From NCBI GenBank assembly GCA_951813565.1, contig OX638351.1, positions 3,456,001 to 3,520,000 of the forward strand: 64,000 nt of DNA, read 5' to 3'. Positions 6,013-61,259 of the stretch are shown one piece after another. The notes under the pieces were generated by a model, which worked only from the letters and a program-made list of their open reading frames with translations, was not told the origin of the DNA and made no database searches. The DNA comes from an uncultured Poribacteria bacterium. GTDB lineage: Bacteria > Poribacteria > WGA-4E > WGA-3G. Numbering within the stretch: the stretch's first letter is position 1; every line of letters begins with the position of its first letter. A program made the translations under genes and the position numbers.

Positions 6013-6203
6013 TACAGTCTATCTCATAAATCGTTAAATACGTTTCCTTACACAGGTTCTACATTCATCGTAGGGGCGGGTCCCTGTGCCCGCCCATTGT
6101 TTCCACTTATGAGAGAGATGGCGAGGCACCAAATCAACGGTCCGAATGCCTTATGGCATTCCCCGGGACCTCGCCCTACAAATGATTTATGAGATACGCT
6201 CTA
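6013..6203. mobile_element. MITE family D containing a REP pair and a 35-bp hairpin unit (6130-6164)
   Basis: Imperfect 20-bp TIR tacagtctatctcataaatc / gatttatgagatacgctcta. Internal gtaggggcggg...ctcgccctac. Confidence 0.6.
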
Positions 6204-6328
6204 TTAGGATTTACGCACAAATTTGGAGCACACGGTAAATAAACGGACATCGCTAAAAAGCGTACAATAAATTGTGTTACTACAATAGCCGCTAAGACTG
6301 TATAAGTCTATAAAGTTTGTTCAATTGT

Positions 6329-8224
6329 TTAGCGATCAGAAACCAATTTTGTTAGATCCCATAAAAGGATAGTACCATCAGTACTACCACTTGCAACTGT
6401 TTCTCCATCAGGTGAATACACAACAGAATTGATCATAGTAGTGTGGCCCGTAAACGTGTTGATGTGGTCGCCAGTGCTCAAGTCCCAGAAGTATATCGCA
6501 TCACCACTACTACTGGTAAGCACATTACCATCTGGAGAAAAATCAACAGAAATACTATTCCGCGTATGACCTCTGAAGGTATTGAGGAGTTCATGTGTAT
6601 TGAAGTCCCATAAACAGACCTTTCCATCCCTGCTGGCACTTGCAAACGTATTACCATCCGGGGAAAAAACAACGGTATGTACAGCCCTCGTATGCTCCAC
6701 AAGTGTGTTAATGAGATTTCCAGTTTCAACATCCCACAACCGGATTGTATTGTCATCACTTGCACTCACAATTGTGTTACTATCTGGTGAAAACGTTACA
6801 TAATGCACATCATCTGTATGCCCTACAATTGTATCTAACCGTTCCCCTATGACATTTCGCTCACCGGATCGTATTTCCCACAAACCGATAGTATTGTCCT
6901 GACTTCCACTTGCAAGCATGCTACCGTCAGGTGAAAAAGCAACACTTCTGACAAGATTAGTATGCCCTTTGAATGAACCGAGAAATCGACCAGTTTCAAC
7001 ATCCCACAATCGAGCTAAGTTAAAATCGGCACTTGCGAGAATTTTACCATCCGCTGAGAAGGTAACGGAGCTGACACTTCCGATAGGTCCAACGAGTGTT
7101 TTTTGTAGTTCACCTGTCTTCGGATTCCAGAAACTTATTTTGGACATATTTCCTGTTACAAGGGAGCTGCCATCAGGTGCATAAGCGAGAGAAAAAACTT
7201 GAAAGGTAAAATCATCTATTGTTTTCTTAACTTTGTAAGTTTCTACATCCCAAAAATTAATCGTCCCTTCCTTGCCAACACTTATGAGTGTATTGCCATC
7301 TGGAGAATAGGTCAAAGAAGTGATCGGTTCTTCAGTATGGATAGTTTTCAACAAAAGTCCTGTGGAGACATCATTTATCAAGATAGCGTTGTTTTCAATC
7401 CCAGTTGCGAGGGTTTTTCCGTCTGGTGAAAACACAACTGCCCAGATTTCTCCTATACTTTCTTCTGCTTCACAGGTTATAAGGAGTTTACCGGTGCGTC
7501 CTTCCCATAAACAGATCTTTCCCCAACTACCTGTTGCGAAAATGCTGCCGTTGGGTAAACTTGCTACTGAATGTATATGCGCTATATCATCTTGATCACT
7601 GGTTATAGTGTTGATGCGTTCTCTCGTTCTCGGCTCCCAAAAACATAAGGTGTTCCCAACCCGATACGAGCCGCTTGCTATCACTGTTCCATCTGACGAA
7701 AACGATACCGAGTGAACGTTATTTGAATGTCCTTGAAGAGATGCTACCCATTCTCCTGTGTTGACATCCCATAGTCCAACCGTATTATCATCGCTTGCGG
7801 TAGCAAGTATCTTACCATCCCGACTGAATGATACCTCATTAATATCGTCCCGGTGTCCAATAAAACTTAATATGTGCTCACCTGTGTTTGCATCCCACAA
7901 CCAAGCAGTATTATCATCACATGCAGTGGCAAATGTTGTCCCATCCGGACTAAAAGCCAGAGACTTAATTGGACGTGTATGTCCTGTGAGTAAATCCAAT
8001 AATTCATCTGTCCGCAAATCGTATATCCAGACACCGATTGTCGTAGTAATAGCAAGACGATTTCCATCTGGAAAATATTTTACTTTATATGCTTTACCTT
8101 TTCCAATCCGTGCTTTGGCTGCCTCAGGTAAATCCCATAATTCTTTTCCTTGACTATAGCTATTTGGTAAACATAGAATAAAGATTAACGGTAAAGTTGT
8201 TAGTAACAATTTTAGCATTTTCAT
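6329..8224 (-). CDS. Secreted WD40 repeat protein
   Basis: Signal peptide, WDLPEAAKARIGKG motif, tandem WD40 repeats, AAGGAG RBS. Confidence 0.92.
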   Translation of the reverse strand: MKMLKLLLTTLPLIFILCLPNSYSQGKELWDLPEAAKARIGKGKAYKVKYFPDGNRLAITTTIGVWIYDLRTDELLDLLTGHTRPIKSLAFSPDGTTFATACDDNTAWLWDANTGEHILSFIGHRDDINEVSFSRDGKILATASDDNTVGLWDVNTGEWVASLQGHSNNVHSVSFSSDGTVIASGSYRVGNTLCFWEPRTRERINTITSDQDDIAHIHSVASLPNGSIFATGSWGKICLWEGRTGKLLITCEAEESIGEIWAVVFSPDGKTLATGIENNAILINDVSTGLLLKTIHTEEPITSLTYSPDGNTLISVGKEGTINFWDVETYKVKKTIDDFTFQVFSLAYAPDGSSLVTGNMSKISFWNPKTGELQKTLVGPIGSVSSVTFSADGKILASADFNLARLWDVETGRFLGSFKGHTNLVRSVAFSPDGSMLASGSQDNTIGLWEIRSGERNVIGERLDTIVGHTDDVHYVTFSPDSNTIVSASDDNTIRLWDVETGNLINTLVEHTRAVHTVVFSPDGNTFASASRDGKVCLWDFNTHELLNTFRGHTRNSISVDFSPDGNVLTSSSGDAIYFWDLSTGDHINTFTGHTTMINSVVYSPDGETVASGSTDGTILLWDLTKLVSDR

Positions 8225-8245
8225 TACATCTCTCCTTTGCTTTTA

Positions 8246-8374
8246 TAGTAAATTCGAAAATATGTGAATACTTTACGATAAATGTGGTTTTACAATGTTC
8301 AATTTTAGGTCTGGTAGGAGCGGTTTCCTAACCGTTTCCACCGGGGAGTGTCCACATTTTTTTAGATTTCACTA
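8246..8374. mobile_element. MITE family A copy
   Basis: TA|tagtaaattcgaaaa...tttagatttcacta|TA with internal ggtaggagcggtttcctaaccg REP. Confidence 0.6.
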
Positions 8375-8432
8375 TAATTAATTTGAATTTATAAGATGGA
8401 ATCCATCTCCTCTAATGTCTTTAGAGATTGGT

Positions 8433-9131
8433 TTATTTTGACGGAGGTAAGACATTTACCCAATGTCCGTCCATTCTGTCATCTTCAATAAATCCGACTT
8501 TTGACCACCAAGTATTTGCACCTGTTCTGGCGTGTCCGCGGTCAAAGTTAATCCCAATGTCAATCCGTTGAGTTGTCTCAGGATAATCCAACATGCCCCA
8601 TGGAATCTCCATCTCTACAATCCATCCATCCTCAACGATGTTGGCAGCCACGTTCCATAGTTCAGGCACATCCTCTATAGGAACATTGAGTGGCGGATGG
8701 CTGACAAACTTTACGCCTAAAGGGTTTGACATAAAAAATCTTCTGTCTCTGAATTGATGTGTATGAAAAAGATCAATTGTAAAGGATATCCAATCATCGC
8801 GCCATGGTCGAACCTGATCCTCGGTCTCAAAGGCAACCAATTGGTCCGGTTTTTCGTCGTACAGATACCACGCGACATAAATGGCTTTATCAGTATAAAT
8901 CAACCTGATAACGGATTGATCTTTAGCTGGGGCACCATCAGCATTTCTGTCAGTGAAATCAGTACCACGCGGCGCTTTTTTCCATGCAGCGTCGTCTAAC
9001 TTCCCATCAATTATAGGTGGCGAGGCAACCTTTACTCCGCGCAATTCCTTAGGGGGTTTATTAACGACAATTTTACAACCTGTGAGTATTAACATCACTG
9101 AGATTAATTTTATGAGAAATATGGTTTTCAT
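8433..9131 (-). CDS. CBM9/DOMON-like carbohydrate-binding lipoprotein
   Basis: Lipobox LILTGC. Motifs PIIDGKLDDAAW, YTDKAIYV, GWIVEMEIPW, IGINFDR. Confidence 0.8.
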   Translation of the reverse strand: MKTIFLIKLISVMLILTGCKIVVNKPPKELRGVKVASPPIIDGKLDDAAWKKAPRGTDFTDRNADGAPAKDQSVIRLIYTDKAIYVAWYLYDEKPDQLVAFETEDQVRPWRDDWISFTIDLFHTHQFRDRRFFMSNPLGVKFVSHPPLNVPIEDVPELWNVAANIVEDGWIVEMEIPWGMLDYPETTQRIDIGINFDRGHARTGANTWWSKVGFIEDDRMDGHWVNVLPPSK

Positions 9132-9312
9132 ATCTTCATTCTCCTTAGAATTGGAACGAACAGAGTATTAGTTCTTATCTTTGTAGATGTTAAGACATCA
9201 TTATCGCATTAATTCAATTTATTTTCGTATTCTTAAATTCGCTGTGTCCACCATATAAATACATCCATGGATGCACTTTTAGCGAGTTTTGCATGAAAAC
9301 AGATACCATGCT

Positions 9313-11217
9313 CTATTGATTAAAAACCACGGCTGTTAAATCCCATAACAGCACTGTGCCATCGTAGCTACTGCTTGCAAGCGTCTTACCATCAGGAGAA
9401 AACATAACGTCCGTGATCCTTGAAATATGCCCAACAAAGGTGTGTATTTTCTCTCCCGTTTTTGCATCCCATAGATAAACTACATCGTAGTAGCTTCCAC
9501 TTGCAAAAATACTTCCATCAGGGGAAAATGTGAGAGAAGTGACATCACCATGATGCGGAATTAGGGGTAAACGTAATTTGCCAGTTTCCACATCCCACAC
9601 ATGTATAATGTCATCTTCTCCGCCGCTTATAAGACTTGTGCCATCTGGCGAAAACACAATGTCATAAACATAGTCTGTGTGTCCAGTAAGTGTTTTTATG
9701 TGTTCGCCACTCTTGGAATCCCACAACATAACCGTGTTGTCCGAACTTCCGCTTGCGAGTTTGCTTCCATCCGGAGAAAACACAATGGAATTCACAGACC
9801 TTGCATGTGCCTCAAGCGTATTTAGCAGATCCCCGATAAGTGGTTGTTCACCAGTGCGAACCTCCCATAACCGGATGTTACCGTCGTGGTAGCCTGTAGC
9901 AAGTGTGTCACCATTTGGAGAATAGGCGATAGATTTCGCATTGGATCTACCATCACTGAAACTTCCCATGAACCTACCAGTTTGCACATCCCACAAGCGA
10001 ATTTTACTCACAGATGTGAGATTACGTCCGCTTACGATTGTATTCCCATCCGGAGAGAAAGCCGCAGCATAGAAAAAAGTGCGATAACCAGTAATGATTT
10101 TGAGAAGATCTCCTGTATGTAAATCCCACAATTGAAGTTTTACGCCGCCACCACTGGCAAGCATATTGCTATCTGGAGCATACGCAATTGAATGTAACTG
10201 ATACGTATGTCCAGTGATGGTTTTTGAAAGCGTCCAATCGTTACTGTTCCAGAACCGTACCGTGCCATCGTAACTTCCACTCGCAAGTATTGTGCCATCT
10301 GGTGAATATGTTAATGTTGAAACGAGTCTTTGGTGATATAGTGTTTTAAGTAGGTTGCCAGTGTTGATATCCCAAAGTCGAATTGTCTCATCACGGCTTG
10401 CCCCCGCGACCGTACGCCCATTGGGTGCAAAAACAACAGAATTGATAAATCCACCGTGCCCAGTGAGGGTTTTCAAGCGTTCTCTTGTAGCAACATGATA
10501 AATATATACCTTATTTGCTGCACATGCAACTATTTTGCCATCTGGGGAAAACGCCAAAGTTTTCACCGTAGTATCTGGGACATAGATAATATTCTGTTGT
10601 TCACCGGTATTTGCATCCCAAAATCGTAATGTCTGGTCTGCTGCCCCACTTGCAAGCATTTTGCCATCTGGAGAATATGCCACACAATACACTCCTCCTC
10701 CATGTCCCCAGAGCGTTTTTAGGAGTTCGCCAGTGTGTATCTCCCATAGCTGAATAGAATTGTCGTCACTACCACTCGCGAGAATCTGTGCTTTAGGACT
10801 AAATGCAACTGAACTCACGCCGCCGCCATGTCCTACAAGTGTCGCTTTATTCTGACCAGTGTGTGTATCCCATAACTCGATTCTGCCATCATTATTTCCC
10901 GTGGCAAATAGTTTGCCATCCGGACTAAAATCTACAGACCTGACGTATGTAGCATGTGCTGGTAGCAGATCAATTTCTTCTCCTGTCCGCACATCATATA
11001 TCCAAGTGCCAGCGGATGTTGCGACAGCGATTTTATTCCCATCTGGAAAATACTTAATGTTATATATTTTCCCTTTCCCGAAACGTGCTATAGCATCTGT
11101 CGGCAAACCCCAGCGTGTATATTCACCGGAGAAAGCGTTTTGCATAAAAATTGGATACATAACAGAAATTACAAGGAACACCGATCGAAACAGATTCATT
11201 TTACGCATGAAGGTCAA
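9313..11217 (-). CDS. Secreted WD40 repeat protein (start may be slightly downstream)
   Basis: Signal-like N-terminus, WGLPTDAIARFGKG motif, WD40 repeats. Confidence 0.92.
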   Translation of the reverse strand: MTFMRKMNLFRSVFLVISVMYPIFMQNAFSGEYTRWGLPTDAIARFGKGKIYNIKYFPDGNKIAVATSAGTWIYDVRTGEEIDLLPAHATYVRSVDFSPDGKLFATGNNDGRIELWDTHTGQNKATLVGHGGGVSSVAFSPKAQILASGSDDNSIQLWEIHTGELLKTLWGHGGGVYCVAYSPDGKMLASGAADQTLRFWDANTGEQQNIIYVPDTTVKTLAFSPDGKIVACAANKVYIYHVATRERLKTLTGHGGFINSVVFAPNGRTVAGASRDETIRLWDINTGNLLKTLYHQRLVSTLTYSPDGTILASGSYDGTVRFWNSNDWTLSKTITGHTYQLHSIAYAPDSNMLASGGGVKLQLWDLHTGDLLKIITGYRTFFYAAAFSPDGNTIVSGRNLTSVSKIRLWDVQTGRFMGSFSDGRSNAKSIAYSPNGDTLATGYHDGNIRLWEVRTGEQPLIGDLLNTLEAHARSVNSIVFSPDGSKLASGSSDNTVMLWDSKSGEHIKTLTGHTDYVYDIVFSPDGTSLISGGEDDIIHVWDVETGKLRLPLIPHHGDVTSLTFSPDGSIFASGSYYDVVYLWDAKTGEKIHTFVGHISRITDVMFSPDGKTLASSSYDGTVLLWDLTAVVFNQ

Positions 11218-11260
11218 CTCCTTTGAAACAAATCAATATCATCAATGTCTTAGAAAGCTA

Positions 11261-13231
11261 CTATGGATTAATTTCCCAAAAAATCATAGTGCTATCAGAA
11301 CTACCACTCATTAGCGTCTTACCATCAGGAGAAAAGACAACTGTGTTTATATAACCAGTATGTCCAGTAAATGTCTTCTTCAGTTTTCCTGTATTTATAT
11401 CCCATAGGTTGATCTCTCCTTGATCCCAAGGATTCGTCTCCCCGCGATGTGAACTGGCTAATGTCCGTCCATCAGGTGAAAACGCTACAGAAATAGTTGG
11501 CTTCTTTGGTCCGATAGATTTTATATGCTCACCGGTCTTTGTATCCCAGAAACGAATTATGTTATCATCGCTTGAACTTACAATCATATCTCCGGAAGGC
11601 GAGTATGCAACCTTGTTAATCCTATCGGCAAAATCTTCAATAGTCTTTAGGGTTTTACCGGTATTAACATCCCATATTCGGATTGTTCCATCACTCCCTG
11701 CACTCATAAGCGTATTTCCAGATGGAGAAAATGCCAGATCATGAATGTTTTGTTCATGACCTATGAACGAATTTATAAAATTCCCACTGTGGACACTCCA
11801 CAAACGAACTACTTTGTCATAACCGCAACTGGCGAGTATGCTTCCGTCAGAACTGAAAGCAACAGATGTAATTCTATCATCGTGTGCATTCATAATAATG
11901 TGATTTTGTTCTCCAGAGTCTACATCAAATATTGCCAAAGCACCTTCAGAATTTCCACAGGCGTATGTCATATTATCTGGTGAATAGGCAGTGCAAGTAA
12001 TTCTATTTAGCTCAGTGTCAACAGTTTTTTGTAGCGTAATTGTGTTTGTATCCCACAGTTGAAAATCACCTGGATATAATAAACATGCAAGAGTTCGCCC
12101 ATGCGATGCATACATTGCAAACCTGACTGATCCTACGGTGTGTCTATTAACAGTTTGTAGAAGATCCCCCGTAGCAATATCCCAAATACCTATAGTATTA
12201 TCAGAACCGTAGCTTACAAGCGTCCTGTCTTTAGGGTTGAATGTCACCGAATAGACTCTACGTCCATTTCCACTATGGGTGATTTTTATCTGCTTTTTGT
12301 TGACATCCCATACTCGAATCGTTCCATCATTACTTCCAGAAATTAGCATATTACTGTCCGGAAAAAATGCCATTGAATTGATACGTTCTTGATCGAGTTT
12401 GACACTTGGGTAGTTCGGTACAAGAGACATTAGGAATTCCCCCGTCTTTGTGTTCCACACATGTATTTTTTCATCGTAACCATAACTGGCAAGTTTTTCT
12501 CCATCAGGAGAAATCGTAACGCCAGAAACTCTGTCTACATGTCCAGCAATAGTTCGAATAGGTTCACCAGTCTGGACATCCCAAAACCGAATAAATTCAT
12601 CTCTGCTGCCACTTACCAGTGTGTTTCCATCAGGACTAAACGCTACAGAATAAACTCTATCGGTGTGGCCAGTTAACGTTGCCTTGATTTCACCTGTGTG
12701 TGAATTCCACAACCGAACAGTCTTGTCGTAACTACCGCTCGCAATTATGCTACCATCAGGACTGAATGCAATAGAATAAACACTTCCTGTATGACCGCTT
12801 AGTGTTGCCTTTGTTTCACCTGTATTGGAATCCCACAACCGAATAGTCTTGTCGTTACTACCGCTTGCAAGTTCACTTCCATCAGGGTTGAAACACAGTG
12901 AATAAACAGGACGCGTGTGGCCTGTGAGCAAATCAAGTTCTTTTCCTGTTTGTTTATCATAGATCCAAACACCTATTGAGCTCGCTACAGCAAGTTTAGT
13001 GTTGTCTGGAAAGAATGCGATATCATACACAAATCCCTTTCCAATACGGGCTTTTGCCCCTTCGGGTAAGTAATCTTTCATATATTCTTGCGCGAAAGCG
13101 TTTAGCAAACATGATACAGAAAAACTAAGAAACACAACAAGAAAAGTAAGCCTTGTTTTCATCAAACAAACCTCCATTTTTATACAAAAAGTTGCTATGT
13201 AAGCAGTGAATAACAACCCATACAGAATCAT
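11261..13231 (-). CDS. Secreted WD40 repeat protein (likely start ATG ~13162, MKTRLTFL)
   Basis: GGAGG RBS before MKTRL, LPEGAKARIGKG motif, WD40 repeats. Confidence 0.92.
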   Translation of the reverse strand: MILYGLLFTAYIATFCIKMEVCLMKTRLTFLVVFLSFSVSCLLNAFAQEYMKDYLPEGAKARIGKGFVYDIAFFPDNTKLAVASSIGVWIYDKQTGKELDLLTGHTRPVYSLCFNPDGSELASGSNDKTIRLWDSNTGETKATLSGHTGSVYSIAFSPDGSIIASGSYDKTVRLWNSHTGEIKATLTGHTDRVYSVAFSPDGNTLVSGSRDEFIRFWDVQTGEPIRTIAGHVDRVSGVTISPDGEKLASYGYDEKIHVWNTKTGEFLMSLVPNYPSVKLDQERINSMAFFPDSNMLISGSNDGTIRVWDVNKKQIKITHSGNGRRVYSVTFNPKDRTLVSYGSDNTIGIWDIATGDLLQTVNRHTVGSVRFAMYASHGRTLACLLYPGDFQLWDTNTITLQKTVDTELNRITCTAYSPDNMTYACGNSEGALAIFDVDSGEQNHIIMNAHDDRITSVAFSSDGSILASCGYDKVVRLWSVHSGNFINSFIGHEQNIHDLAFSPSGNTLMSAGSDGTIRIWDVNTGKTLKTIEDFADRINKVAYSPSGDMIVSSSDDNIIRFWDTKTGEHIKSIGPKKPTISVAFSPDGRTLASSHRGETNPWDQGEINLWDINTGKLKKTFTGHTGYINTVVFSPDGKTLMSGSSDSTMIFWEINP

Positions 13232-13712: not shown

Positions 13713-13827
13713 GTAGGGTGGGATCAAATCAACACCGAACGTACGCATGACATTCGGCGAGAAATCAATCGTGATGCACAGACCTAATACAGCATCAGAT
13801 CCATGAATGTATTAAATGAACCACACC
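13713..13827 (+). repeat. REP palindrome interrupted by AATCAA-hairpin unit(s)
   Basis: gtagggtgggat [caaatcaacaccgaacgtacgcatgacattcggcg] agaaatcaatcgtgatgc...gaaccacacc. Confidence 0.55.
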
Positions 13828-13842
13828 GGTTAATTTGAATAT

Positions 13843-14010
13843 GTCATAGGTACCCACTACCTAAAGGTAGGGGCTTGTGCTTCCTTGCGACTGCGGTTTT
13901 CTCAGAGAGTTGACCGTCTTATTGTCGCTCCACTTTAGGCAGCCAAGCCTGCCCGTTTGATATTGATAGCAGCATTGGTGTCTCTGTCGTGGTGTGAACC
14001 ACATTCGGGA
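13843..14010 (-). ncRNA. Putative TnpB omegaRNA (reRNA) scaffold
   Basis: By established TnpB biology it spans the tnpB 3' end to the right-end hairpin. The 5' limit is approximate. Confidence 0.5.
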
Positions 14011-15047
14011 CATGTCCACTGTCTATCTGCGAGAGAGAGTTCTTTGTTATGGTATCCACAATCACTACAAGGTTTTGTTGTTGCTGTCCATTGAGAGATT
14101 TGGACAAGTTTTTTGCCGTGCTTCGCACACTTCTGTTCCAATATCTGAAGAAACTGGTAGAAAGAATGGTCAGAAACTTTACGCCCCCAAAGCCGTTTCA
14201 TACCGTCAAGGTTCAGCGTTTCAAAAATGAGTGTGTCAAACTCTACACAAAGTTTTGAGGCAAGTTTCCATTGCCAATCTTCTCTTTGTCGTGCCACCTT
14301 TCTGTGTTGCCTTGCCAAAGCACGACACGCACGATAATAGTTGTTAGAACCTTTGACTTTACGGCTCAGCGCTTTGCTCAAGGCTCGCAACTTTTTCAGT
14401 GATTGTTTGAAAAACTGCGGAGATTGTCCCTTGTTGCCTTCGTCGCTTGTGAGGAACGTTTTATTTCCATAATCAAATCCTGCGCTCTTACCCGTCTTGG
14501 GTTTGGGTTCGGAATCCTCAACATTCTCGCACGAAAAGCATATCCAATAGTCACCGCACCTGTCACATTTGATGGTGATCGTCTTGATTAGCCCTTTGAT
14601 CTCACGGTGTTTGTGAAAGGAAAACCATGTATCTATACAGTTGATCTTGATACGATTATCTTCAAGTTTGTAACCCGCTTGTGTAAACGTCATAGAGTTG
14701 TATTTGTGTCTCGGTTTGATTTTCGGTCTACCCACTTTACGGGTTGTCACCCCTGCTTTTCGGTCTTTTATATTCTGAAAAAAAGCGTCTCGAGATTTGC
14801 CGTAACGCAGGACAACGTCTTGAACAACTTGACTCGGCAAGTCCGCCCAATGCGGTTTAGTTGTCTTTTTAAGTTTTGTGACGTGTGCCTTCAAACGATA
14901 TATAGATATGTTTTTACCGAACATGCGATAATACCTACGTGCCAAACGCATGATATGCACATGGATTTCCCACATATCATCAAGCATATTACCAAGTTTG
15001 ATTCTGTTAGATTGGTGTTGAAGTTTGAACTTGTGAGATTTTCTCAT
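13935..15047 (-). CDS. tnpB: RNA-guided endonuclease TnpB
   Basis: RuvC motifs AGFDYG, FETLNL and HDRDTNAAINI, plus zinc ribbon CSDCG...CPECG. All appear intact. Confidence 0.93.
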   Translation of the reverse strand: MRKSHKFKLQHQSNRIKLGNMLDDMWEIHVHIMRLARRYYRMFGKNISIYRLKAHVTKLKKTTKPHWADLPSQVVQDVVLRYGKSRDAFFQNIKDRKAGVTTRKVGRPKIKPRHKYNSMTFTQAGYKLEDNRIKINCIDTWFSFHKHREIKGLIKTITIKCDRCGDYWICFSCENVEDSEPKPKTGKSAGFDYGNKTFLTSDEGNKGQSPQFFKQSLKKLRALSKALSRKVKGSNNYYRACRALARQHRKVARQREDWQWKLASKLCVEFDTLIFETLNLDGMKRLWGRKVSDHSFYQFLQILEQKCAKHGKKLVQISQWTATTKPCSDCGYHNKELSLADRQWTCPECGSHHDRDTNAAINIKRAGLAA

Positions 15048-15094
15048 TGACCACTTTGACCTTCAATATAGTCTTTTATCACTTCAAGAGCTAC
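15044..15094 (-). pseudogene. tnpA: C-terminal remnant of IS200-type TnpA
   Basis: Reads VALEVIKDYIEGQSGQ*, the catalytic-Tyr helix YIxxQ. Its TGA overlaps the tnpB ATG. Confidence 0.7.
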
Positions 15095-15277
15095 AATATA
15101 GTATGATATATTATACCACATTGTGATTAGATTGAAAAGTATATTTTAAATCAAAACTTTCGCCGTCTACATCCCCTACCTAAAGGCAGGGGGTTTGACG
15201 GGGAGTGCTAAATTTCCAACTGTTAATTATACTACATTTTTTATCTGATGGCAAATTTTTCCGAATATTTTTAACGC

Positions 15278-23723: not shown

Positions 23724-23941
23724 CATAGGTGTCAATTTAAGCACATAATTACCAGATTGTCTCTTGTGGGAGTGAATCAACGCCAAATGCGCTTTTTGGC
23801 AGCATGCCATACGGGGAATGCCAAAGGGCATTCATACCCGGTTAATGACTAAATGTCATTCATACCGTTGATTTCTTGATTTGGCGCATGCTGCGTTGAT
23901 TCACTCCTACAAGAAAATCTATCCTTAAGTTGACGCCTATG
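23724..23941. mobile_element. MITE family C (18-bp TIR CATAGGYGTCAAYTTAAG) inserted in a REP and loaded with nested hairpin units
   Basis: TIRs match at 16/18. Flanked by degenerate 18-bp direct repeats. A lone matching end lies at ~62647-62664. Confidence 0.75.
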
Positions 23942-30155: not shown

Positions 30156-30497
30156 TGTAATACAATCATCTCCTATTATCCGACAAAATCCAATTTATTT
30201 TTTATAAGACAAAAAATGCTTAATAAGTATACAATATAAATTGACATATTTGCAAGCGTATTTCACGACCAAGTCAGTGGTATTTAGCTTCAAGTTTTTA
30301 GCGGTTTCAGCAAGAAAATCGCGAACAAAAATTCACTTCTGCTGAAAATTGTGAATATCAGTCATCTAATTGCCATCAAATTAAAACGTATATTCTTTAT
30401 GTCTGTTTACAGCATAAAACTTTTGACACGGTTATCTGTGTTTAATATAAATTCACATTAGCACAATATCCTGCCGTTTAAGTCCGTTAAATTAAAT

Positions 30498-30758
30498 GAG
30501 GGGTGTGCATAAATATTTGGCGCATCAACACAGACAGGGACAGACGCCAGGTGCCGCTTTATTTATAGAAATGCGTTTGTAGTCGCGCAATTCATTGCCA
30601 AATCAACGCAGCATGCGCCAAATCAACGGTCCGAATGCCTTATGGCATTCCCCGTGTGGCATGCTGCGCCTCTTTGAACTTGTGGACGGAAACCCACGGC
30701 GTGTGCCTATTACCTTTAAGCGCATATTTAACATCGGAATTATTTATGCACACCACTC
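30498..30758. mobile_element. MITE family B (IS256-like ends), 261 bp, 8-bp TSD AATTAAAT
   Basis: TIR gaggggtgtgcataaata / tatttatgcacaccactc. aattaaat at 30490-30497 and 30759-30766. Family assignment is inferred from the ends and TSD length. Confidence 0.85.
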
Positions 30759-30883
30759 AATTAAATGGAGTACAATTTCAATCTAATTATAGTTGAAAAA
30801 TGTTGCATAAATATAACTTTAATTTGAAAAAAACGGATAAAACGCGATAACGTGTGTTGGGAGTGCGCTATTCAAATTCCCAC

Positions 30884-31666: not shown

Positions 31667-31843
31667 TAGGAAACCTAACCCACTGAATATCATAGGTCTA
31701 TTCGGCGTTGATTCACAGTGTATCAATAATTATTGTTTTCACCATAGATCGAAAATATCGCGCTTACAAAGCGCTCCCACAAGAGAACCAATTAAACCCA
31801 ACAAAGCGATATCTTTTCTTGTGGGAGGGGTTTGTAACCCCGA
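31667..31843. repeat. Partial MITE A end plus inverted REP pair
   Basis: 31667-31746 is repeated at 31931-32045, where it carries one extra unit. gcgctcccacaaga / tcttgtgggagggg are inverted. Confidence 0.65.
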
Positions 31844-31847
31844 TTTA

Positions 31848-32043
31848 TAGTAAAACCTAAAAATATTGGAACATTTCCCGGTAGATGCGGTTTCCCAATC
31901 GCATCGGAGACTCAATAAGCACGGTTCGGTTAGGAAACCTAACCCGCTGAATATCATAGGTGTATTCAGCATTGATTTGGACGAATGCCAAAAAGCGCAT
32001 TCGGCGTTGATTCACAGTGTATCAATAATTATTGTTTTCACCA
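31848..32043. mobile_element. MITE family A copy with two tandem hairpin units
   Basis: TA|tagtaaaacctaaaaata...attgttttcacca|TA. Left half is nearly identical to 59830-59882. Confidence 0.65.
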
Positions 32044-32078
32044 TAAATTATATTTTTTGATAAAATTCAAAAAAGTTG

Positions 32079-32108
32079 TTGCATAAAAAATGCAAAAAGT
32101 TTTATAAT
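32079..32108 (+). promoter_or_regulatory. Putative sigma-70 promoter (TTGCAT-N18-TATAAT)
   Basis: Near-consensus boxes in an AT-rich tract upstream of the orphan operon. Confidence 0.45.
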
Positions 32109-32119
32109 ACCTCGTAGAC

Positions 32120-32260
32120 GTTAAAAAAATCCGCCTCGCGTGGATTACGTCGGAGGTGCTTATTAGATGCACCGACAGTGTACCAACCACTGCCGATGCA
32201 AAGCACTGCCAGAATAAGCCTGACAGCGCTGGTGTCTATTTTAACAGAGACCTTCTGAAG
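32120..32260 (+). ncRNA. Putative structured 5' leader or sRNA
   Basis: Consecutive stems aatccgc/gtggatt, gtc-ggtgc/gcaccgac and cagtg/cactg directly after the promoter. GC-richer than the flanks. Confidence 0.35.
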
Positions 32261-32461
32261 TGTCAATGTAGTTTAGAGACCAGCGACCTCTACAGGGATA
32301 GATAAAACCTTATAGATACCTAATCAACGGTATGAATCATGGCGAATCATGTAGAATACCAAAAGCGTATTCTACCAAGCGCATTCGTCTTTAGGCATTC
32401 CCCGCCTATTTCTGTAGTCTGTCAAAACAATTAACCTACTCAAATAATGAGGAGGAACAAG

Positions 32462-32713
32462 ATGAGACGAGACTACATTCTCACAACGCTTATTATTCCT
32501 ATATTGATTTTAGCCTTCGGTCTGCTGCTGTTCGGCACGCTTGATGCGACACAAATAGATGCGTCCGATTGTGTACGTGAACGAAGCATCCGATCGGAAT
32601 GTTTACAGCGAGGACAAAAACCGATTTGTCCAAACCCAAATCCAACGTCCCCTTGCACGCTGGACACAACGAATAGCAGGGATAACAACAAACTTGGACA
32701 GGAGGATCGTTAG
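32462..32713 (+). CDS. Small membrane-anchored or secreted protein with 4 Cys
   Basis: GAGGAGG RBS before ATG 32462, hydrophobic N-terminus, abuts the next gene. Confidence 0.55.
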   Translation: MRRDYILTTLIIPILILAFGLLLFGTLDATQIDASDCVRERSIRSECLQRGQKPICPNPNPTSPCTLDTTNSRDNNKLGQEDR

Positions 32714-33490
32714 ATGAATAGACAAATGTATTGGGGCATCGCAGCCCTCATTATAATCCTGATTGCTGCAGGTGGTTTTATGTATTGGCAGTGGTCACAG
32801 GTGCAGCAGCTCAAAGAACAGCTTGCACAAGACAAGAAAATGCTTGAAGACAAGAATAAGCCGGTCGCAGAAAATGAACTCCCGTCTGCCGAACCGGGCA
32901 AAAAGTGGGTGCCACATGATGACCATTTTCATCAGGTGCCACTCTCCGCACCTAATGTGTGGCAAGATGCGCCTATAACGCAACCCACGCAAGCGCCAAA
33001 AACGTATGACGGGCCGCTAACATTTCACAAGGAACTACTTGAAACAAACCCGGTAGAAGCTCTGCGGCAGCAAACGATAGAACGCGGACATTGGAGTGCA
33101 GAATGGATACCGCCATTCCCACCAGATGATCAAGAAGCCGCAAGGGTAGCCCGTAATGAGTATCTCATCACATACTATCAAAGTATCGGAGATACAGATA
33201 ACCCCGTGTATAGAGAGGCGTATCAGGACCTTCAGTTTTATTCCTCTATCTACGCCAAAAGATACCGGAGCGTATTGGAGCCATATCTCGATGAATCGGG
33301 TTTGCTTGATAAGTCACTTGACATCGCCACCAAACAGAAATTATTCCAACGATCCTATGAAGTACGCACGCGACGTGGCGATATATTTCAGCTACAGTGG
33401 GGAAACTTGTCACCCGATGATGTAGGCGATCTCTCAACGTATGGGAGTCCTTTAGATCCCGCTGCACCTCCAATAAGGGATGATAGATAA
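32714..33490 (+). CDS. Membrane-anchored protein with coiled coil and His-triad motif
   Basis: GGAGG RBS, N-terminal TM, QVQQLKEQLAQDKK coiled coil, WVPHDDHFH (HxxHxH). Confidence 0.8.
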   Translation: MNRQMYWGIAALIIILIAAGGFMYWQWSQVQQLKEQLAQDKKMLEDKNKPVAENELPSAEPGKKWVPHDDHFHQVPLSAPNVWQDAPITQPTQAPKTYDGPLTFHKELLETNPVEALRQQTIERGHWSAEWIPPFPPDDQEAARVARNEYLITYYQSIGDTDNPVYREAYQDLQFYSSIYAKRYRSVLEPYLDESGLLDKSLDIATKQKLFQRSYEVRTRRGDIFQLQWGNLSPDDVGDLSTYGSPLDPAAPPIRDDR

Positions 33491-38771: not shown

Positions 38772-38954
38772 GAGGGTGTGCATAAATATTTGGCGCATCA
38801 ACACAGACAGGGAAGACGCCAGGTGCCGCTTGGTTTATAGAAATGCGTTTGTAGTCGCGCAATTCTTTGCCAAATCAACGCAGCATGCGCGTATGGCATG
38901 CTGCGCCTCTTTGAACTTATGGACGGAAACCCACGGCGTGTGCCTACTACCTTT
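38772..38954. mobile_element. MITE family B, right end missing
   Basis: Near-identical to 30498-30716 but lacks the 35-bp nested unit and the right TIR. Confidence 0.85.
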
Positions 38955-51378: not shown

Positions 51379-51551
51379 CGGATACTCCTTTCAAGTAGAT
51401 GGATATTATACCATAATCTTGTCTTAGAGAGTGGCCCGAATTTCCGGTGGCAGTACAGGTCGCTCCTACAGAAGAGGACCAGAACAAATTAACGTAAATA
51501 TAGAAAACTAAATAGCTCTGTTCATTACACCGTTGTGTTTACTACCTTATA

Positions 51552-52391: not shown

Positions 52392-52408
52392 GGTTTTGCT
52401 TACATTAG

Positions 52409-53530: not shown

Positions 53531-53607
53531 TGCGATTCTTGAATAAGTTAGCGTATAGACCGGCGCCTTTTATAAAATACAAAGGGAAACGCCTGGGTTC
53601 TTCTCAC

Positions 53608-54588: not shown

Positions 54589-54607
54589 TCAATTCCTTTA
54601 CCATTCT

Positions 54608-55891
54608 TTAGAGATTTGCTATTACCTCAGTTGCGGCTTGAACGGTCGTGTTGATATCTGCTTCAGAATGAACTAAGGAGACAAATCCTGCTTCAAATTG
54701 GGAAGGGGCAACATACACGCCACGTTCAAGGAGACCCCAAAAGTACTGACGAAAACGTTCTGTATCAGCAGTTCGTGCACCATCCGCATCAGTAACAACT
54801 TCCGATGTGAAGTAAAGCATCAACATTGAACCGACGCGGCTATGCCATGCGTTAATTCCATGTTTTTGGGTTGCCTCAGCGAGTCCATCCGCAAGTACAG
54901 ACGCACGGTTTTCAAGCTGCTCATAAACCCCGGGTTCCGCCAACTTTTTCAAAGTTGTTATACCGGCAGTGACTGCCAACGGATTACCAGACAAAGTGCC
55001 TGCCTGATAGACATCGCCTTCAGGCGCAACGCAACGCATAATTTCACTTTTTCCGCCGTAAGCACCGACAGGCAAACCACCACCGATTATCTTTCCAAGA
55101 CAGGTCATATCAGGCGTAACGTTGTAGTATGACTGTGCACCGCCATAAGCAACCCTAAAACCAGTAATTACTTCATCAAAAATAAGCACGATTCCATGCT
55201 GTTCAGTTATTTCACGAAGTTCATTGAGATAACCTTCACGGGGCGGGATAATACCCATGTTCCCCATGATAGGCTCAAGAATGAGACAGGCGATTTCATC
55301 AGCATTCGCTTCGATTGTTACTTTCACTGCTTCAGGATCGTTAAATGGGACAGTAAGGGAATTGCGTGCAAAATCTTCTGGAACACCACCACTATCTGAA
55401 AGACCGAAAGTTGCAACGCCAGACCCAGCTTTTGCTAAGAGATAGTCTACATGTCCGTGATAGCATCCGTCTATCTTGATGATTTTATTTCGTCCAGTAT
55501 AACCGCGTGCGACACGAATTGCACTCATTGTCGCTTCCGTACCTGAGTTGACAAGCCGAACCTGATCAATAGAGGGTACTGCGTTGACGATGATTTCAGC
55601 AAGTTCTGTCTCTAAAGTCGTGGGTGCGCCAAAACTTGTTCCGCGTGCGGATGCAGCGTTGATAGCTTCGACTACATCTGGATGCACATGCCCCAAAACT
55701 AACGGACCCCATGAAGCGACATAATCAATATACGCGTTTCCGTCTATGTCGTAAATTTTAGACCCGGTACCATAATCAATAAAGCGAGGATGCTCACCAA
55801 CCTTACTGAAATTACGGACAGGACTGTTAACACCACCAGGGATAAATTGTTGTGATTTTTGCCACGCTGATAAGGATTTGCTGCTCTCCAA
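54608..55891 (-). CDS. hemL: Glutamate-1-semialdehyde 2,1-aminomutase
   Basis: [33 protein letters not shown]. Confidence 0.97.
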
Positions 55892-55989
55892 TTCGTTCCT
55901 CCTATTTCAGTTTTAATTTGTTAAGTTAAGGTTTGAAATCATTCCTACCAAGAAATCGTTCCTACAGAAGAGTCTACTGCTAACCACAG

Positions 55990-56967
55990 CTAATTATTTA
56001 GCCACTCTACAACCGATTTTGCAAAGTACGTCAAAATTATATCTGCTCCTGCACGTTTGATACTTGTTAATGCCTCCAACGCAACCCGCTTTTCGTCAAT
56101 CCATCCGTTTTGTGCTGCTGCCTTTATCATAGCGTATTCGCCGCTGACGTTATACGCTGCAACAGGCATCTGAAATTCCGTCTTCACTTGATGGATAACA
56201 TCAAGATATGATAGAGCAGGTTTCACCATCACAATGTCCGCGCCCTCCTCAATATCTAATGCTACTTCTCGTAGTGCTTCTTCAGAATTTGCTGGGTCCA
56301 TCTGATATGAGCGGCGATCACCGAATTGTGGTGCTGATTCTGCCGCTTCACGAAAGGGTCCATAAAAAGCAGATGCATATTTTGCTGAATACGCCATTAT
56401 AGGGATGTTTTCGTATCCCTCATCGTCTAATGCGTCGCGAATTGCACTGACACGACCATCCATCATATCCGATGGTGCAATTACATCTGCCCCCGCCTGC
56501 GCGTGCGATACACTCTCTTTAACAAGTAAATCAAGCGTTGGGTCGTTCTGCACCTCGCCATCTTCAATGATACCACAATGACCGTGATCGGTATATTCAC
56601 ACAGACAGACATCTGTAATCACAAGTAGATCAGGGACAGCGTCCTTAATCGCACGCACTGCCTGCTGAATAATACCATCTTCTGCATAGGCTTCAGACCC
56701 AATCTGATCCTTCGTTTCTGGTATTCCAAAGAGGATTGTCCCGGGAATACCAAGAGATGTAAGTTCTTTCGCGGCATCTATGAGTCTATCTACTGAGTAT
56801 TGGTAGCACCCCGGCATAGAAGAGATTTCATGTGCCGTGTTTTGTCCATGCACAACAAACATCGGATAAATGAGATCATCCACAGACAGATGAGTTTCGC
56901 GGACGAGGCGACGTAAGTTTTCATTTGCGCGTAGGCGTCTTGGACGATAGATAGGAAAAACGCTCAT
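55990..56967 (-). CDS. hemB: Porphobilinogen synthase (Zn type)
   Basis: [31 protein letters not shown]. Confidence 0.97.
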
Positions 56968-57896
56968 TCAACCTCCGCCGTATCCATTTTGATTTCGTAT
57001 TTCTTTAATTCAAGTGTTTTTTCCTTTGGATCAGCGGGCATTGGTATTCCCGCTTCCGCAGGTAACATATCTAATAATAGGTAACCTGATTTTTGCTTAA
57101 CTTTTACAATTCCGACGTTAGGCGCATACCATACAGTTGTAACAGTTTCTCCTGGTGGATTTACCTGTCCAGGTGGAGGGTCTGAGGTAATAATTGCAGT
57201 TGTTTCTGTGCGATATTCAACTTTCAAACAGTCTTCAAATGTGCCAGCTTCCGTTTCAACAGTTTCTGTGCCGAGGATTTTTCCCGTTTCGAGGATAGTA
57301 AAATCAAGCGTGATTTCTGGCAGTTCTGGTGCCCCCTGAAAATCAGGTAAACCTTGTATATTATATTGCATGGTGATTTTGGCACTAATTTGTATTGCAT
57401 CCCATTCTTCATCTGAAACCATTTGGACAGGGAGAAAATTGAATCGGTTCTCAGCTTCTACCTCTACATCATAGTTGAGGTTAACAGTAAGGTCGAACTC
57501 GGAAGGTGAGTTATTCTCTAAAGAATTCTTTGCCAATTTGGAAAATATTTCCATCTCTTTGGTGAGCCGTGCTTTTACAGCTTTCTCAACCTCATCACCG
57601 ACAACAAGTGTGATCCCAGCATCACCGAATTGATATAGAAATGGATGGATAAAAGGGATATAATCCGCCCAATCCTCTAACTCAGGTTCATATTCAAACG
57701 CGTGATATGTTTCACCCGCAATTTCTTCACCTTCAATCGCGCGGCGAGTTAACTCGTTTCCATCTTGGTCTTCATAAACCCAATAACTTCCAAGTATGCT
57801 GGGAAAATATTTTTGCGCAGACTCATTTCCAAGCAGCGCTGCACTGAAACTAAAAACGAATAATAGCGTTGAAACAGCACTAAATCTTTTTAACAT
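56964..57896 (-). CDS. Secreted acidic protein, paralog 1 of 4 (DUF3108/TapB-like beta fold inferred)
   Basis: Signal peptide, YFP...[36 protein letters not shown]. Stop overlaps the hemB start. Confidence 0.8.
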
Positions 57897-57939
57897 AACA
57901 TTCCCTAATTGCGTGTGTGATTTATAGGCGCACCATCAT

Positions 57940-58857
57940 TTAATCGCTGCTACCACTCTCCGATCCAGCAGTTTTGATTTCAAATCTCTTTAATTCCAGT
58001 GTCCTCTCCTGATGAGGCGGAAGAGCACCAGGAAAACCTGCATCATCTGGTATCATGTCTAAGAACATGTGTCCCGATTTTTGATGTAATTTTACTATTC
58101 CGACGTTGGGGGCAAACCATACTGTCGTTACAGTTTCTCCAGGAGAAGCTATGTCTTCAGGTGAAGGGTTAGGTGTCATTACTGCTGTTGTTTCAGTGCG
58201 ATACTCAACTTTCAGACAGTCTTCAAACGTGCCAGCTATCGTTTCAACAGTTTCTGTACCCTGGACAATTCCTGTTTCGACGATGGTGAAATCGATCAAC
58301 AATTCTTCACCTTCCGGAGCACCAGCTCCCAGAGGAATCAACTTGGCGTTAACTTCGACCTCGTTTACGTCCCACTCTTCATCAACAGCAATAGTATCAG
58401 GAAGTAAAAACAGATTTTCTTCTGCCTCTACCTCCACGTCAACTCCCATATCAAAAACAGAAGTATCAATTCCTGGTGGTGCCTGCCCTTTTATTATTTC
58501 TACAAAAGTTTCTATTTCATTTTTAAAGCGCGCTTTGACTGTGTTTTCTACCTCTTCACCAACAACAAGCGTGATCCCCACATCATTAATTTGATATAAA
58601 AAGGGGTGGATAAAAGGGCTATAATTTACCCAATCCTCTAACTCAGGATCATAACTGAAGGCGGGGTACGTTTCACCTGCAATCTCTTCACCTTCAATTG
58701 AATGACGGGTCAACTCATTCCCATCCTGGTCTTCATACACCCAAAAACTATCTAAAGTGCCAGGAAAATATAGCTGCGCTGACTCAATCCCTAACAAAGT
58801 TATGCTAAAACTAAAGACTAATATAAAAAACAGTGCCACAGAAAATTTTTTCAACAC
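57940..58857 (-). CDS. Secreted acidic protein, paralog 2
   Basis: Same motifs as paralog 1. GGAGG RBS. Confidence 0.8.
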   Translation of the reverse strand: MLKKFSVALFFILVFSFSITLLGIESAQLYFPGTLDSFWVYEDQDGNELTRHSIEGEEIAGETYPAFSYDPELEDWVNYSPFIHPFLYQINDVGITLVVGEEVENTVKARFKNEIETFVEIIKGQAPPGIDTSVFDMGVDVEVEAEENLFLLPDTIAVDEEWDVNEVEVNAKLIPLGAGAPEGEELLIDFTIVETGIVQGTETVETIAGTFEDCLKVEYRTETTAVMTPNPSPEDIASPGETVTTVWFAPNVGIVKLHQKSGHMFLDMIPDDAGFPGALPPHQERTLELKRFEIKTAGSESGSSD

Positions 58858-58904
58858 GAGGATTCCTCCATTTATTTCTTGGTTGGTATAAGTCTAACGG
58901 TAAC

Positions 58905-59801
58905 CTATTTATTGTTGGCATCGTCTTGCGATAGATCAGATGCTATTTCGTATTTCTTTAATTCAAGTGTCTCGACCGAGGGAGCAGTGATCTCAGCTGC
59001 TTCTTCATCAGACAGTGTTGCATCAACAACATCTCTTTCTGATATCATCTTGAGAAAAATCTTATCAGATTGTTGGTGAAATTTAACAATTCCCACATTG
59101 GGTGCAAACCATAGGGTTGTGATTGATTCTCCTGGTGAGTCTGCTATTGCCGTTGGTCCGGATGCGGTCATTTCTGTTTCCGTTCTATATTCGATCTTCA
59201 AACAATCTTCAAACGTCCCCGCGGCCACTACAACAGTTTCTTTGCCGAGGATTTTTCCCGTTTCGAGGATAGTAAAATCAAGCGTGACTTCAGGCATGTC
59301 AGCAGCATTCTGAAAATCTGGTAGACCCTGTATGTCAAACTTCATTGTAACTTTGGCATTAATTTGTGTTGTATCCCATTCTTCATCAGGAGCTGCTTGG
59401 ATTGGGAGAAAATTGAATCGGTCTTCTGCCTCTACAACTACATTATAGTTAAGGTCAACAGTCAGGTCCAATTCAGGTGGGGAGTTGTTCTCTAAAGAGT
59501 TTTTCGCTAAATTAGAGAATATTTCCATCTCTTTGGTAAGACGCGCCTTCACGGCTTTTTTTATTTCATCTTCAACAAGATACGTTATCCACTCCTCTCC
59601 TACGTTTAACAGAGAAAGATGCATGTAACGATTAAAACCTGTCCAGTCTTCTAATATAGGTTCGTAACTGAAGCCGTAATATGTTTTACCCGCAATTTCT
59701 TCTCCTTCAATCGCACGGCGTGTCAATTCGTTTCCTATTAGATTCGTACTGAAATAAAAAGATAAAAAAAATATCCAGAGAGGACACAGTTTTTTCAACA
59801 T
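58905..59801 (-). CDS. Secreted acidic protein, paralog 3, with a 23-aa in-frame deletion
   Basis: Same C-terminal motifs. LIGNE joins directly to LTRR. Confidence 0.75.
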   Translation of the reverse strand: MLKKLCPLWIFFLSFYFSTNLIGNELTRRAIEGEEIAGKTYYGFSYEPILEDWTGFNRYMHLSLLNVGEEWITYLVEDEIKKAVKARLTKEMEIFSNLAKNSLENNSPPELDLTVDLNYNVVVEAEDRFNFLPIQAAPDEEWDTTQINAKVTMKFDIQGLPDFQNAADMPEVTLDFTILETGKILGKETVVVAAGTFEDCLKIEYRTETEMTASGPTAIADSPGESITTLWFAPNVGIVKFHQQSDKIFLKMISERDVVDATLSDEEAAEITAPSVETLELKKYEIASDLSQDDANNK

Positions 59802-59829
59802 GCGAAGTGTTTCCTTCAAAGAGATATTA

Positions 59830-59958
59830 TAGTGAAACCTAAAAATATGTGCACACTCCCCGGTAGATGCGGTTTCCTAACCAATGCAGAATCATGTAGA
59901 ATGCCATGCGCGCATTTGGCGTTGATTTGTAGTGTGTAAATAATTATGGTTTTTACTA
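59830..59958. mobile_element. MITE family A copy with hairpin-unit fragments
   Basis: TA|tagtgaaaccta...ggtttttacta|TA, with internal catgtagaatgcc...ggcgttgatttg. Confidence 0.7.
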
Positions 59959-59994
59959 TAATCCGAGTACAGCAGTACAAGCACATTTTGCAGA

Positions 59995-60888
59995 TTATTT
60001 ACTATCCCCGTTTTCCGACTCATCAGATTTGATTTCGTAACTTTTTAATTCAAGGGTCTTCACATCATCCGAATCCTCTTGTTCATTTTTGAATTTGACA
60101 ATTCCAACATTTGGTGCTAACCACAGTGTCGTAACTGATTTGCTCGGTTGTTGTTCCGACAGTAATTGTTTGAACTCAGGAGGGAGTGTTGTATTTGTGG
60201 TTGTTTTGGATTTATACTCAATTTTTAAACAGTCTTCAAACGTTCCAGCTTCAGTTTCAACAGTTTCCTTTCCAATAACATTACCTGTTTCAACAAGATT
60301 AGTCGTAGAGGAGATAGTTTTAACTTCATCCGGAATTTCAGCGGGGGCACCCTGAATGTCCATCGTCATTTTTACTTTTACGTCCAGCTGCATAGCAATC
60401 CATTCTTCATTATATGTGACAGGCATTGGACAGAGATAAAAATAATCCTGTGCTTTTGGTTCAATAGTATAGTCAAAATCAATTGTAATGCCGGGAGGGA
60501 GTTGCCCGGCGGCTAACTGCCGGAGCGCCACAAGTATTTCATCAAGTTTTTTAGTTAAGATTGACTTCTTGGCGTTTTCAATATCATTGCCAACATAAAA
60601 AGCAACCCATTCTTCACCAACTTGATAAAGAAAGGGGTGCACTGCATACATATATTTTTCCCAATCATCTATTTCTGGTTCATAGTCAAAGGCACGAAAT
60701 GTTTTTCCTTCAACATCTTTTTTCTCTACAGCATAGCGAGTTAATTCATCTCCGTCTTGATCTTCGTAAACCCAAAAGCTGCCAACGTTGTCTGGAAAGT
60801 ATAATTTTTCCCATTCGTTAGCGAGTAGGGTTACACCTAATCCAAATATAAGCAGTGAAACGAAAATTGACCGAAAAAATTTCAACAC
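59995..60888 (-). CDS. Secreted acidic protein, paralog 4
   Basis: Same motifs as paralogs 1-3. GAGGGAG RBS. Confidence 0.8.
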   Translation of the reverse strand: MLKFFRSIFVSLLIFGLGVTLLANEWEKLYFPDNVGSFWVYEDQDGDELTRYAVEKKDVEGKTFRAFDYEPEIDDWEKYMYAVHPFLYQVGEEWVAFYVGNDIENAKKSILTKKLDEILVALRQLAAGQLPPGITIDFDYTIEPKAQDYFYLCPMPVTYNEEWIAMQLDVKVKMTMDIQGAPAEIPDEVKTISSTTNLVETGNVIGKETVETEAGTFEDCLKIEYKSKTTTNTTLPPEFKQLLSEQQPSKSVTTLWLAPNVGIVKFKNEQEDSDDVKTLELKSYEIKSDESENGDSK

Positions 60889-60916
60889 TTTTTCTCCCTC
60901 TAAATTATATTTATCT

Positions 60917-61259
60917 AAGGGTGTGCATAAATAATTGGCGCATCAACACAGACAAGGACAGACGCCAGGTACCGCTTGATTTATAGAAATGCGTTTGTAG
61001 TCGCGCAATTCATTGCCAAATCAACGCAGCATGCGCCAAATCAAGAAATCAGCGGTATGAATCATGGCGAATCATGTAGAATACCAAAAGCGTATTCTAC
61101 CAAGCGCATTCGTCTTTAGTCATTCACCGGGTCCGAATGCCTTATGGCATTCCCCGTGTAGCATGCTGCGCCTCTTTGAACTTGTGGACGGAAACCCACG
61201 GCGTGTGCGGACTACCTTTAAGCGCATATTTAACATCGGAATTATTTATGCACACCCTC
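60917..61259. mobile_element. MITE family B, 343 bp, 8-bp TSD ATTTATCT, most deeply nested copy
   Basis: TIRs as at 30498. atttatct at 60909-60916 and 61260-61267. 82 bp longer than the 30498 copy because of nested inserts. Confidence 0.88.

Follow-up and report, generated by a model that had tools for sequence, protein, structure and literature searches.

The window analysed here, a 64,000-nt stretch of DNA, covers positions 3,456,001-3,520,000 of the single-contig, 5.43-Mb genome of an uncultured Poribacteria bacterium, a sponge symbiont. It carries copies of a hairpin-forming unit that is a real, independently inserting, non-coding micro-element of 33-35 nt. The units move on their own, yet most copies are passengers of larger hosts, namely repetitive extragenic palindromic sequences (REPs) and MITEs (miniature transposable elements with inverted repeats). 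Two classes of insertion junction, a link between the head of the unit and the adjoining host base, and a link between copy number and REP-associated tyrosine transposases (RAYTs) were worked out in the present analysis.

Each unit consists of two variable nucleotides, the heptamer AATCAAC, and a 9-bp stem with a 7-8-nt loop. Its ends are asymmetric, and it has no terminal inverted repeats of its own. An earlier reading of the window, made from the sequence only, had described a fixed head. AATCAAC is indeed invariant, but the two bases before it vary (CA, TG, CG, GG, TA, or AG). Nor are the heads inherited with the stems: one identical core bears TA, CA, TG, GG, and CG. In the window, AAATCAAC occurs 13 times against 5.1 expected, and none of 100 shuffles reaches 13. 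Eight of these copies head a unit, and five lie in open reading frames (ORFs) without one. Genome-wide, a hairpin of at most -4 kcal/mol follows 766 of 2358 AATCAAC sites (32.5%), compared with 4.5-7.1% of the sites of 14 control heptamers.

Units were located with regular expressions and a position weight matrix (PWM) trained on 135 distinct cores. The PWM finds 612 core copies in the genome and 0-2 in the reversed genome, which served as the null. These copies form 499 arrays, 79 of them tandem, and 599 of the 612 lie outside long ORFs. Two sister forms have the inner stem and loop in common with the core unit: a bulged form with 150 copies, 22 of which are also in the PWM set, and a short-headed form (type II) with a reversed loop and 97 copies. 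Further forms are found in relatives, including a head-less version of the unit hairpin in a REP loop, with eleven copies in one genome of another genus (G064).

The stems vary while their pairing is kept, as the sequence-only reading had proposed. In 46 distinct but related units, mostly from other genomes and gathered with a pattern that fixes some stem letters, 92.6% of the stem cells are paired and 49 cells are compensatory. None of 500 shuffles reaches this level and slid controls give 23-43%, although two measures out of five did no better than the shuffles. On the head strand, A-C mismatches outnumber G-T mismatches (86 vs 48), which hints that the other strand folds. A search of the window against Rfam gave no match at gathering score.

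The headed pattern is present in all 39 genus relatives (1 to 374 copies) and in 64 of 72 genomes of the family, and outside the family it was seen in one genome of 48. A pattern scan of a species collection gave at least 80 matches; among the 80 listed, 79 are Candidatus Poribacteria and one is an uncultured bacterium. No match was obtained in the viral contig collection searched.

Independent movement is documented by empty and filled sites. Empty relatives were found for 249 of the 499 arrays in many unrelated hosts, and at least 28 unrelated host families with empty relatives could be grouped by hand. The hosts seen include a MITE with terminal inverted repeats, several GTAG REPs, other palindromes, a multi-copy gene leader, and the units themselves, which accept insertions in their own loop, head, and 3' junction. 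Units occur at C|G in both orientations (the bar marks the join). At one orthologous intergenic site, a relative carries a unit (T|G junction, CA head) where the present genome is empty; 2 pairs were alignable among 170 events, the other being filled. The claim that units enter REPs, unrelated hosts, and each other is thus borne out. Confinement to one parent MITE, missing empty sites, and stems without covariation, which would have spoken against mobility, were not observed, and the units are found in many other genomes. In the read data, four runs available as contigs that break at repeats, the joints seen may come from other copies.

Most of the copy number is nevertheless passive, because single host families supply 18-61 unit copies. 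Repeat DNA lies on both flanks of 430 of the 499 arrays, and only 10 have unique flanks. Slippage and fold-back derivatives are common among the units. On the two replication strands, units number 156 and 136. This count is uninformative, since the IS605 control gave no signal (7 vs 13, p 0.26) and the genome has no clear replichores.

The junctions fall into two classes, clean and lossy. Twenty-eight host families were assigned by hand after the tables had been seen, 12 to the clean and 16 to the lossy class, and were then recounted. In the clean class, the host base is followed by two nucleotides (mostly CA), the core, and then a host G, which gives 34- or 35-nt inserts. An exact empty site was found for 11 of the 12 families in the recount, and the twelfth is in a separate empty-site table. 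The join is C|G in 11 families and G|G in one. No target duplication of 3 nt or more occurs in 109 CA-headed contexts. The sequence-only reading had noted no clear duplication and had given C|G as the clearest junction; the lack of duplication holds, and precise C|G insertion describes this class only. All 113 tandem junctions are Y|CA (112 C|CA and one T|CA), irrespective of the head of the first unit. A 34-nt circle would be expected to leave such an invariant C|CA tandem junction.

Heads in the lossy class mostly consist of one G, and the core is followed by G and then by host GG. Between one and four host bases ahead of the GG are deleted in 15 families. Of the 16 families, one is in fact a clean insertion without a head, and three rest on at most two empty relatives each. 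An empty form carrying the G, as needed for a clean insertion, was found in none of the 16 families among the 490 empty relatives examined. An origin of lossy sites from rare G-bearing host variants was rejected on the same ground. It follows that the unit can carry its 3' G along, and that the join is exact on the right but not on the left. The base lost beside GG is A in 11 of 15 families by our own tally (background 36%, p 0.004), and an A lost at this position reads as C|T on the other strand. The unit at 6130, the first example given in the earlier reading, belongs here, as its empty relatives have an extra A.

Other features are common to many junctions. A C stands 5' of the join on one strand in both classes. 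The head tracks the host base, with CA after C in 63 of 69 contexts and TG after G in 34 of 46. The last C of the head pairs with a G, and the right junction falls directly behind this G; the host continues with GG in most contexts. In the clean class, every join has C on its 5' side, and the C|G junction pairs with the CG at the base of the hairpin.

We tentatively propose, at somewhat less than an even chance, that the units move in single-stranded form by means of a resident RAYT, with joining at the 3'-OH of a C and occasional imprecise repair of one end. This non-autonomous element would enter hairpin-forming repeats as single-stranded nucleic acid, and most copies would then multiply passively along with their REP and MITE hosts. 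The putative mover is an HUH Y1 enzyme of RAYT type that acts in trans and makes its nick in single-stranded DNA on the 3' side of a C. For the clean class, two strand transfers would join a CA-headed 34-nt strand, probably a circle closed at C|CA, to the target C|G, and the unit could be guided by the base of its own hairpin, through C-G pairing with the junction. For the lossy class, the strand opposite the head would be nicked, at C|T or C|A within a GTAG REP; along the head strand these sites read A|GG or T|GG. The join on the nick side would be exact and would bring the terminal G of the unit. The second end would be finished by repair or template switching, leaving a G head and the loss of 1-4 host bases.

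The known chemistry of TnpA-REP offers a parallel. In PMC8266576, the enzyme is described as cutting single-stranded DNA at C|T, with one homolog also cutting at C|A. The attacking strand must carry a 3' C, the 3'-OH left by the cut may serve to prime synthesis, and the site is probably picked through pairing with the foot. RAYT chemistry fits better than strict IS200/IS605 peel-and-paste. The present genome has three RAYT-type loci (one with a stop, and an intact one at G000:C1:242008-242496), two of class 1.2 type (one at 3097971-3098471), and five IS605 TnpA matches, with Y1 classes assigned by motif and named after PMC6006769. Within the genus, genomes with the RAYT clade have a median of 45 units vs 16.5 in those without (p 0.0007), in a comparison of kin genomes where RAYT was one of three genes tested. 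The link persists after ranking on REP count (p 0.005) and in the 20 assemblies of 30 contigs or fewer (50 vs 10 units, p 0.01). An HUH/Y1 mover, as first suggested from the window, is thus plausible on account of the REP-type hairpin hosts, the C 5' of the join, and the copy number. The intact RAYT is followed downstream by some eight REP-derived repeats in tandem, each near 37 nt in length (G000:C1:242497-242900).

Several observations weigh against a RAYT-driven mechanism. The copy-number link may only reflect the spreading of the hosts by RAYT. No Y1 locus among 49 in ten genomes has units on both sides, and six have them on one side; the search for a HUH or RAYT gene flanked by units, suggested along with the first description, thus came out negative. 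The same RAYT clade (E<1e-40) also occurs in two families devoid of units, in 7 of 11 and 17 of 29 genomes. Conversely, 185 units are present in G062, which lacks this clade, no Y1 match was obtained for G023 (a single contig, 92% complete, with 46 units), and G016 combines the clade and 439 REPs with just 3 headed units. The clean junctions (C|C and C|G) differ from the known C|T and C|A cleavage sites. The match of the lossy class to these sites arises partly by construction, because the class is partly defined by lacking the G, and its host families were hand-picked after the tables had been seen. No circle, excision read, or cleavage was observed.

A more ambitious version of the proposal, which we regard as doubtful, treats the unit as a single-hairpin, 34-nt parasite of domesticated REP transposases. 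It would be the smallest peel-and-paste substrate, with the base of its own hairpin as the guide, and RAYT nicks in REPs could capture it as well, through a half-reaction that repair completes. If this is true, the unit is a hyperparasite of REPs and a minimal programmable insertion tag.

Movement without any HUH enzyme is unlikely in our view, although several features of the junctions suit it. A polymerase or reverse transcriptase (RT), stalled or nicked at a host hairpin, would use 1-3 nt of microhomology to switch template to a short unit copy in single-stranded form, copy it, and return with the deletion of 0-4 bases. Lossy junctions, the agreement of head and host base, and the frequent slippage and fold-back derivatives would all be expected. 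The right flank begins with GG, or the host ends with CG, like the unit's own 3' context, and the mismatch bias hints at folding of the other strand. General repair leaves unexplained, however, why the 7-nt head and the loop are conserved over 64 of 72 family genomes and why every tandem junction is Y|CA. An RT was rejected as the mover, since unit-bearing G006 (374 copies), G012, G017, G005, and G023 have no PF00078 match. RT is present in 17 of 39 genus relatives with no link to copy number (p 0.6). Non-homologous end joining was likewise dismissed as a route, Ku being found in 0 of 121 genomes. Two side observations concern RTs. G000:C1:811749-813284 encodes a Drt4 antiviral RT above the NCBIfam cut-off. 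Many RT matches in the genus relatives G062, G015, G016, and G031, with long frames on small contigs or clusters, possibly represent host or foreign DNA in the assemblies.

A dedicated and so far unrecognised protein of this Poribacteria family, binding the head and hairpin and moving the unit, seems to us quite unlikely. The confinement of the units to one family (64 of 72 genomes vs 1 of 48) speaks for it, and every known candidate tested is distributed more widely or more patchily. Yet none of the 23 ORFs that have a unit on either side at a distance of up to 400 bp stands out as a candidate. Judged from their N-termini, they resemble housekeeping genes, ordinary transposases, and cas1, along with one unknown 93-aa ORF and others without annotation. 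Ten loci from low-copy genomes show no common neighbour.

Other enzymes were considered, and most were rejected. Class 1.2 Y1 enzymes occur in 21 of 39 genus relatives and in 10 of 11 genomes of a unit-free family, with no copy-number link. Cas1 has matches in two of five unit-rich genomes, and no repeat-length duplication flanks the units. The cas1 gene that happens to have units on both sides belongs to a type III-like CRISPR locus (G000:C1:3988991-4002548) with a long array and a stand-alone group II-like RT directly upstream of cas1. IS110 has no PF02371 match in this genome. The IS91 profile PF04986 gave no match, but its control matched nowhere either. An integron integrase is absent; one tyrosine recombinase, Xer-like, scores far below the IntI cut-offs. 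This sole match in the 5.4-Mb genome, at G000:C1:4771354-4771977, has 207 aa and a catalytic domain only, and PF00589 found no full XerC or XerD.

A strict IS200/IS605 derivative, moved by TnpA through peel-and-paste with TTGAT as the target motif, is very improbable. Such an origin, raised in the sequence-only reading, would account for the lack of target duplication and for a hairpin with a short fixed foot. The genome has matches to IS605 TnpA, and the clean class and the tandem junction fit a circle. The reading fails because the unit has one hairpin instead of two ends, its targets share no tetranucleotide, its joins can be lossy, and the left ends of local IS605 elements follow TTAG or TTAA. 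The TTGAT connection does not hold either, the motif lying inside the unit and not at the target. Peel-and-paste is described as precise and motif-directed in bioRxiv 10.1101/2023.03.14.532601, whereas 15 families, about half of those studied, lose host bases at one junction. Finally, the idea that units never moved alone and spread only as parts of larger REPs and MITEs, though in keeping with the repeat flanks and the large single host families, is hardly credible and as the sole process is refuted by the empty/filled pairs, along with the number of unrelated hosts, the arrays in unique DNA, the orthologous empty site, both orientations at C|G, and self-nesting.

The closest known elements are the small dispersed repeats (SDRs) of Nostocaceae, and REPs. 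SDR1-8 of Nostocaceae were reportedly described by Elhai et al. in 2008. SDR5, of 21 nt, inserts precisely inside the palindrome HIP1 (PMC4390886, PMC13756078, PMC5861425; see also PMC2884548), and SDRs are reported only from Nostocaceae. Like the unit, SDRs are very small and apparently mobile, with precise empty and filled sites in a palindrome. A common secondary structure and self-nesting are features of some SDRs. Unlike SDR5, the unit is from another phylum, has 33-35 nt, and uses many hosts rather than one octamer. It also has a fixed 7-nt leader and two junction classes; the comparison uses descriptions of SDRs in citing papers, and similar junctions may already be described for SDRs. 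The unit is a further case of the very-small-mobile-repeat kind, with a mover that is only a candidate.

GTAG and CGTC REPs, together with bacterial interspersed mosaic elements and REP doublets forming hairpins (REPINs), resemble the unit: they too are hairpins of 20-40 nt between genes, one end of which bears an unpaired tag, and they form clusters, number in the hundreds, and have a lineage-limited distribution (PMC3733652, PMC6006769, PMC8266576, and PMC3116915). As in REP/RAYT systems, the genome with units also has RAYT genes. The tag at the hairpin foot is however AATCAAC and not GT[AG]G/GTAG or CGTC. Single units insert into REPs and one another, and they form tandem head-to-tail arrays instead of inverted doublets. 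No RAYT gene is flanked by units, and the clean class shows C|C and C|G junctions in place of the C|T cut of TnpA-REP. In the way it works the unit resembles a hairpin substrate of REP type, yet it is no REP, given its wrong tag, its lack of a cognate gene, and its insertion into REPs (compare PMC3733652 and PMC3116915).

Palindrome-associated transposable elements (PATEs), which derive from IS200/IS605, are likewise non-coding, have a hairpin, make no target duplication, and possibly pass through a single-stranded circle. PATE-like elements have paired left and right ends and a fixed target motif, whereas the unit has one hairpin, no common target tetranucleotide, and lossy junctions. MITEs of the usual type have terminal inverted repeats and a target duplication, and the unit has neither. 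The crossover position of attC is like the right junction of the unit, after the G that pairs with the last C. In contrast to an integron cassette, the unit has no integron integrase in its genome and no cassette body, and its host mostly continues with GG. In listings and abstract openings from the literature searched, which left out most subscription papers, no description of this unit family appeared.

The movement of REPs and other repeats below 50 nt is an open question. TnpA-REP cleavage has been shown in vitro, and REP dissemination is described as poorly understood in PMC8266576; papers citing SDRs call their function unknown. For the unit, among the smallest mobile DNAs seen, there are dozens of empty/filled junctions that arose independently, a putative circle junction that is fixed, and candidate enzymes that can be named. 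With these, the question of movement becomes testable with short oligos. The lossy class gives direct evidence, at the genome level, for insertion by a single exact join with repair at the other end. The units also mark one Poribacteria family as a lineage and add nested structure between genes, and no phenotype is implied.

Within the window, the units named in the sequence-only reading all lie where it placed them. The bulged-stem unit at 6130-6164 (plus strand, 35 nt, CA head) lies in the second arm of an inverted GTAG REP pair (6070-6179; arms 6070-6095 and 6120-6179, the second split by the unit), a host recognised from sequence and empty relatives. Its junction is lossy, with one host A missing compared with empty copies. 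The identical 35-mer recurs at 30619-30653, and 16 identical copies exist in the genome. This second copy (plus strand) sits in the loop of a core unit at 30599-30667 (plus strand), which is inserted at C|G of a host palindrome and has its own loop interrupted at C|G. The nested pair is carried by a MITE with terminal inverted repeats (30492-30764). An intact 34-nt core unit lies at 38871-38904 (plus strand), a clean C|G insertion in a MITE palindrome with a 10-bp stem, counting the following G, and a hairpin z of -3.6.

Two of the named examples are weaker. The core unit at 13725-13758 (plus strand) is degenerate (PWM 27 bits, hairpin z -0.5), and no empty relative was found for it. The unit at 59896-59929 (minus strand) is a chimera with a core 5' arm and a type II 3' arm and tail, and its stem is weak (z -0.2). 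A degenerate TG-headed core unit of the lossy class lies at 31682-31715 (minus strand), followed at 31946-32014 (minus strand) by a tandem pair of core units with a TG head and then a C|CA junction.

Three further places show nesting. In the composite at 23773-23903, the two ends carry TG-headed units that face opposite ways, each within a REP half, and bulged units are nested to a depth of two on the minus strand. A contig of run X7 agrees with the flanks on both sides of 23742-23925, with about 1.4 kb of other letters replacing the 185-bp composite. At 61017-61169 (plus strand), in a MITE with terminal inverted repeats (60918-61258), a core unit has a bulged unit in its loop, a second bulged unit in the head of the latter, and type II units inside. 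At 32320-32403 (plus strand), a bulged unit with two nested type II units lies in a multi-copy gene leader. This structured leader, with the start of an ORF that has no Pfam match, spans 32040-33490 and has paralogs at G000 2483345, 4797156, and 3448653 and in many relatives. The window genes beside units (15 ORFs scanned) encode WD40 proteins, oxidoreductases, a PhyH dioxygenase, and similar proteins, and none of them is a transposase for the unit. A TnpB-only element of IS605 type lies at 13860-15200, and the genome has 29 related ORFs.

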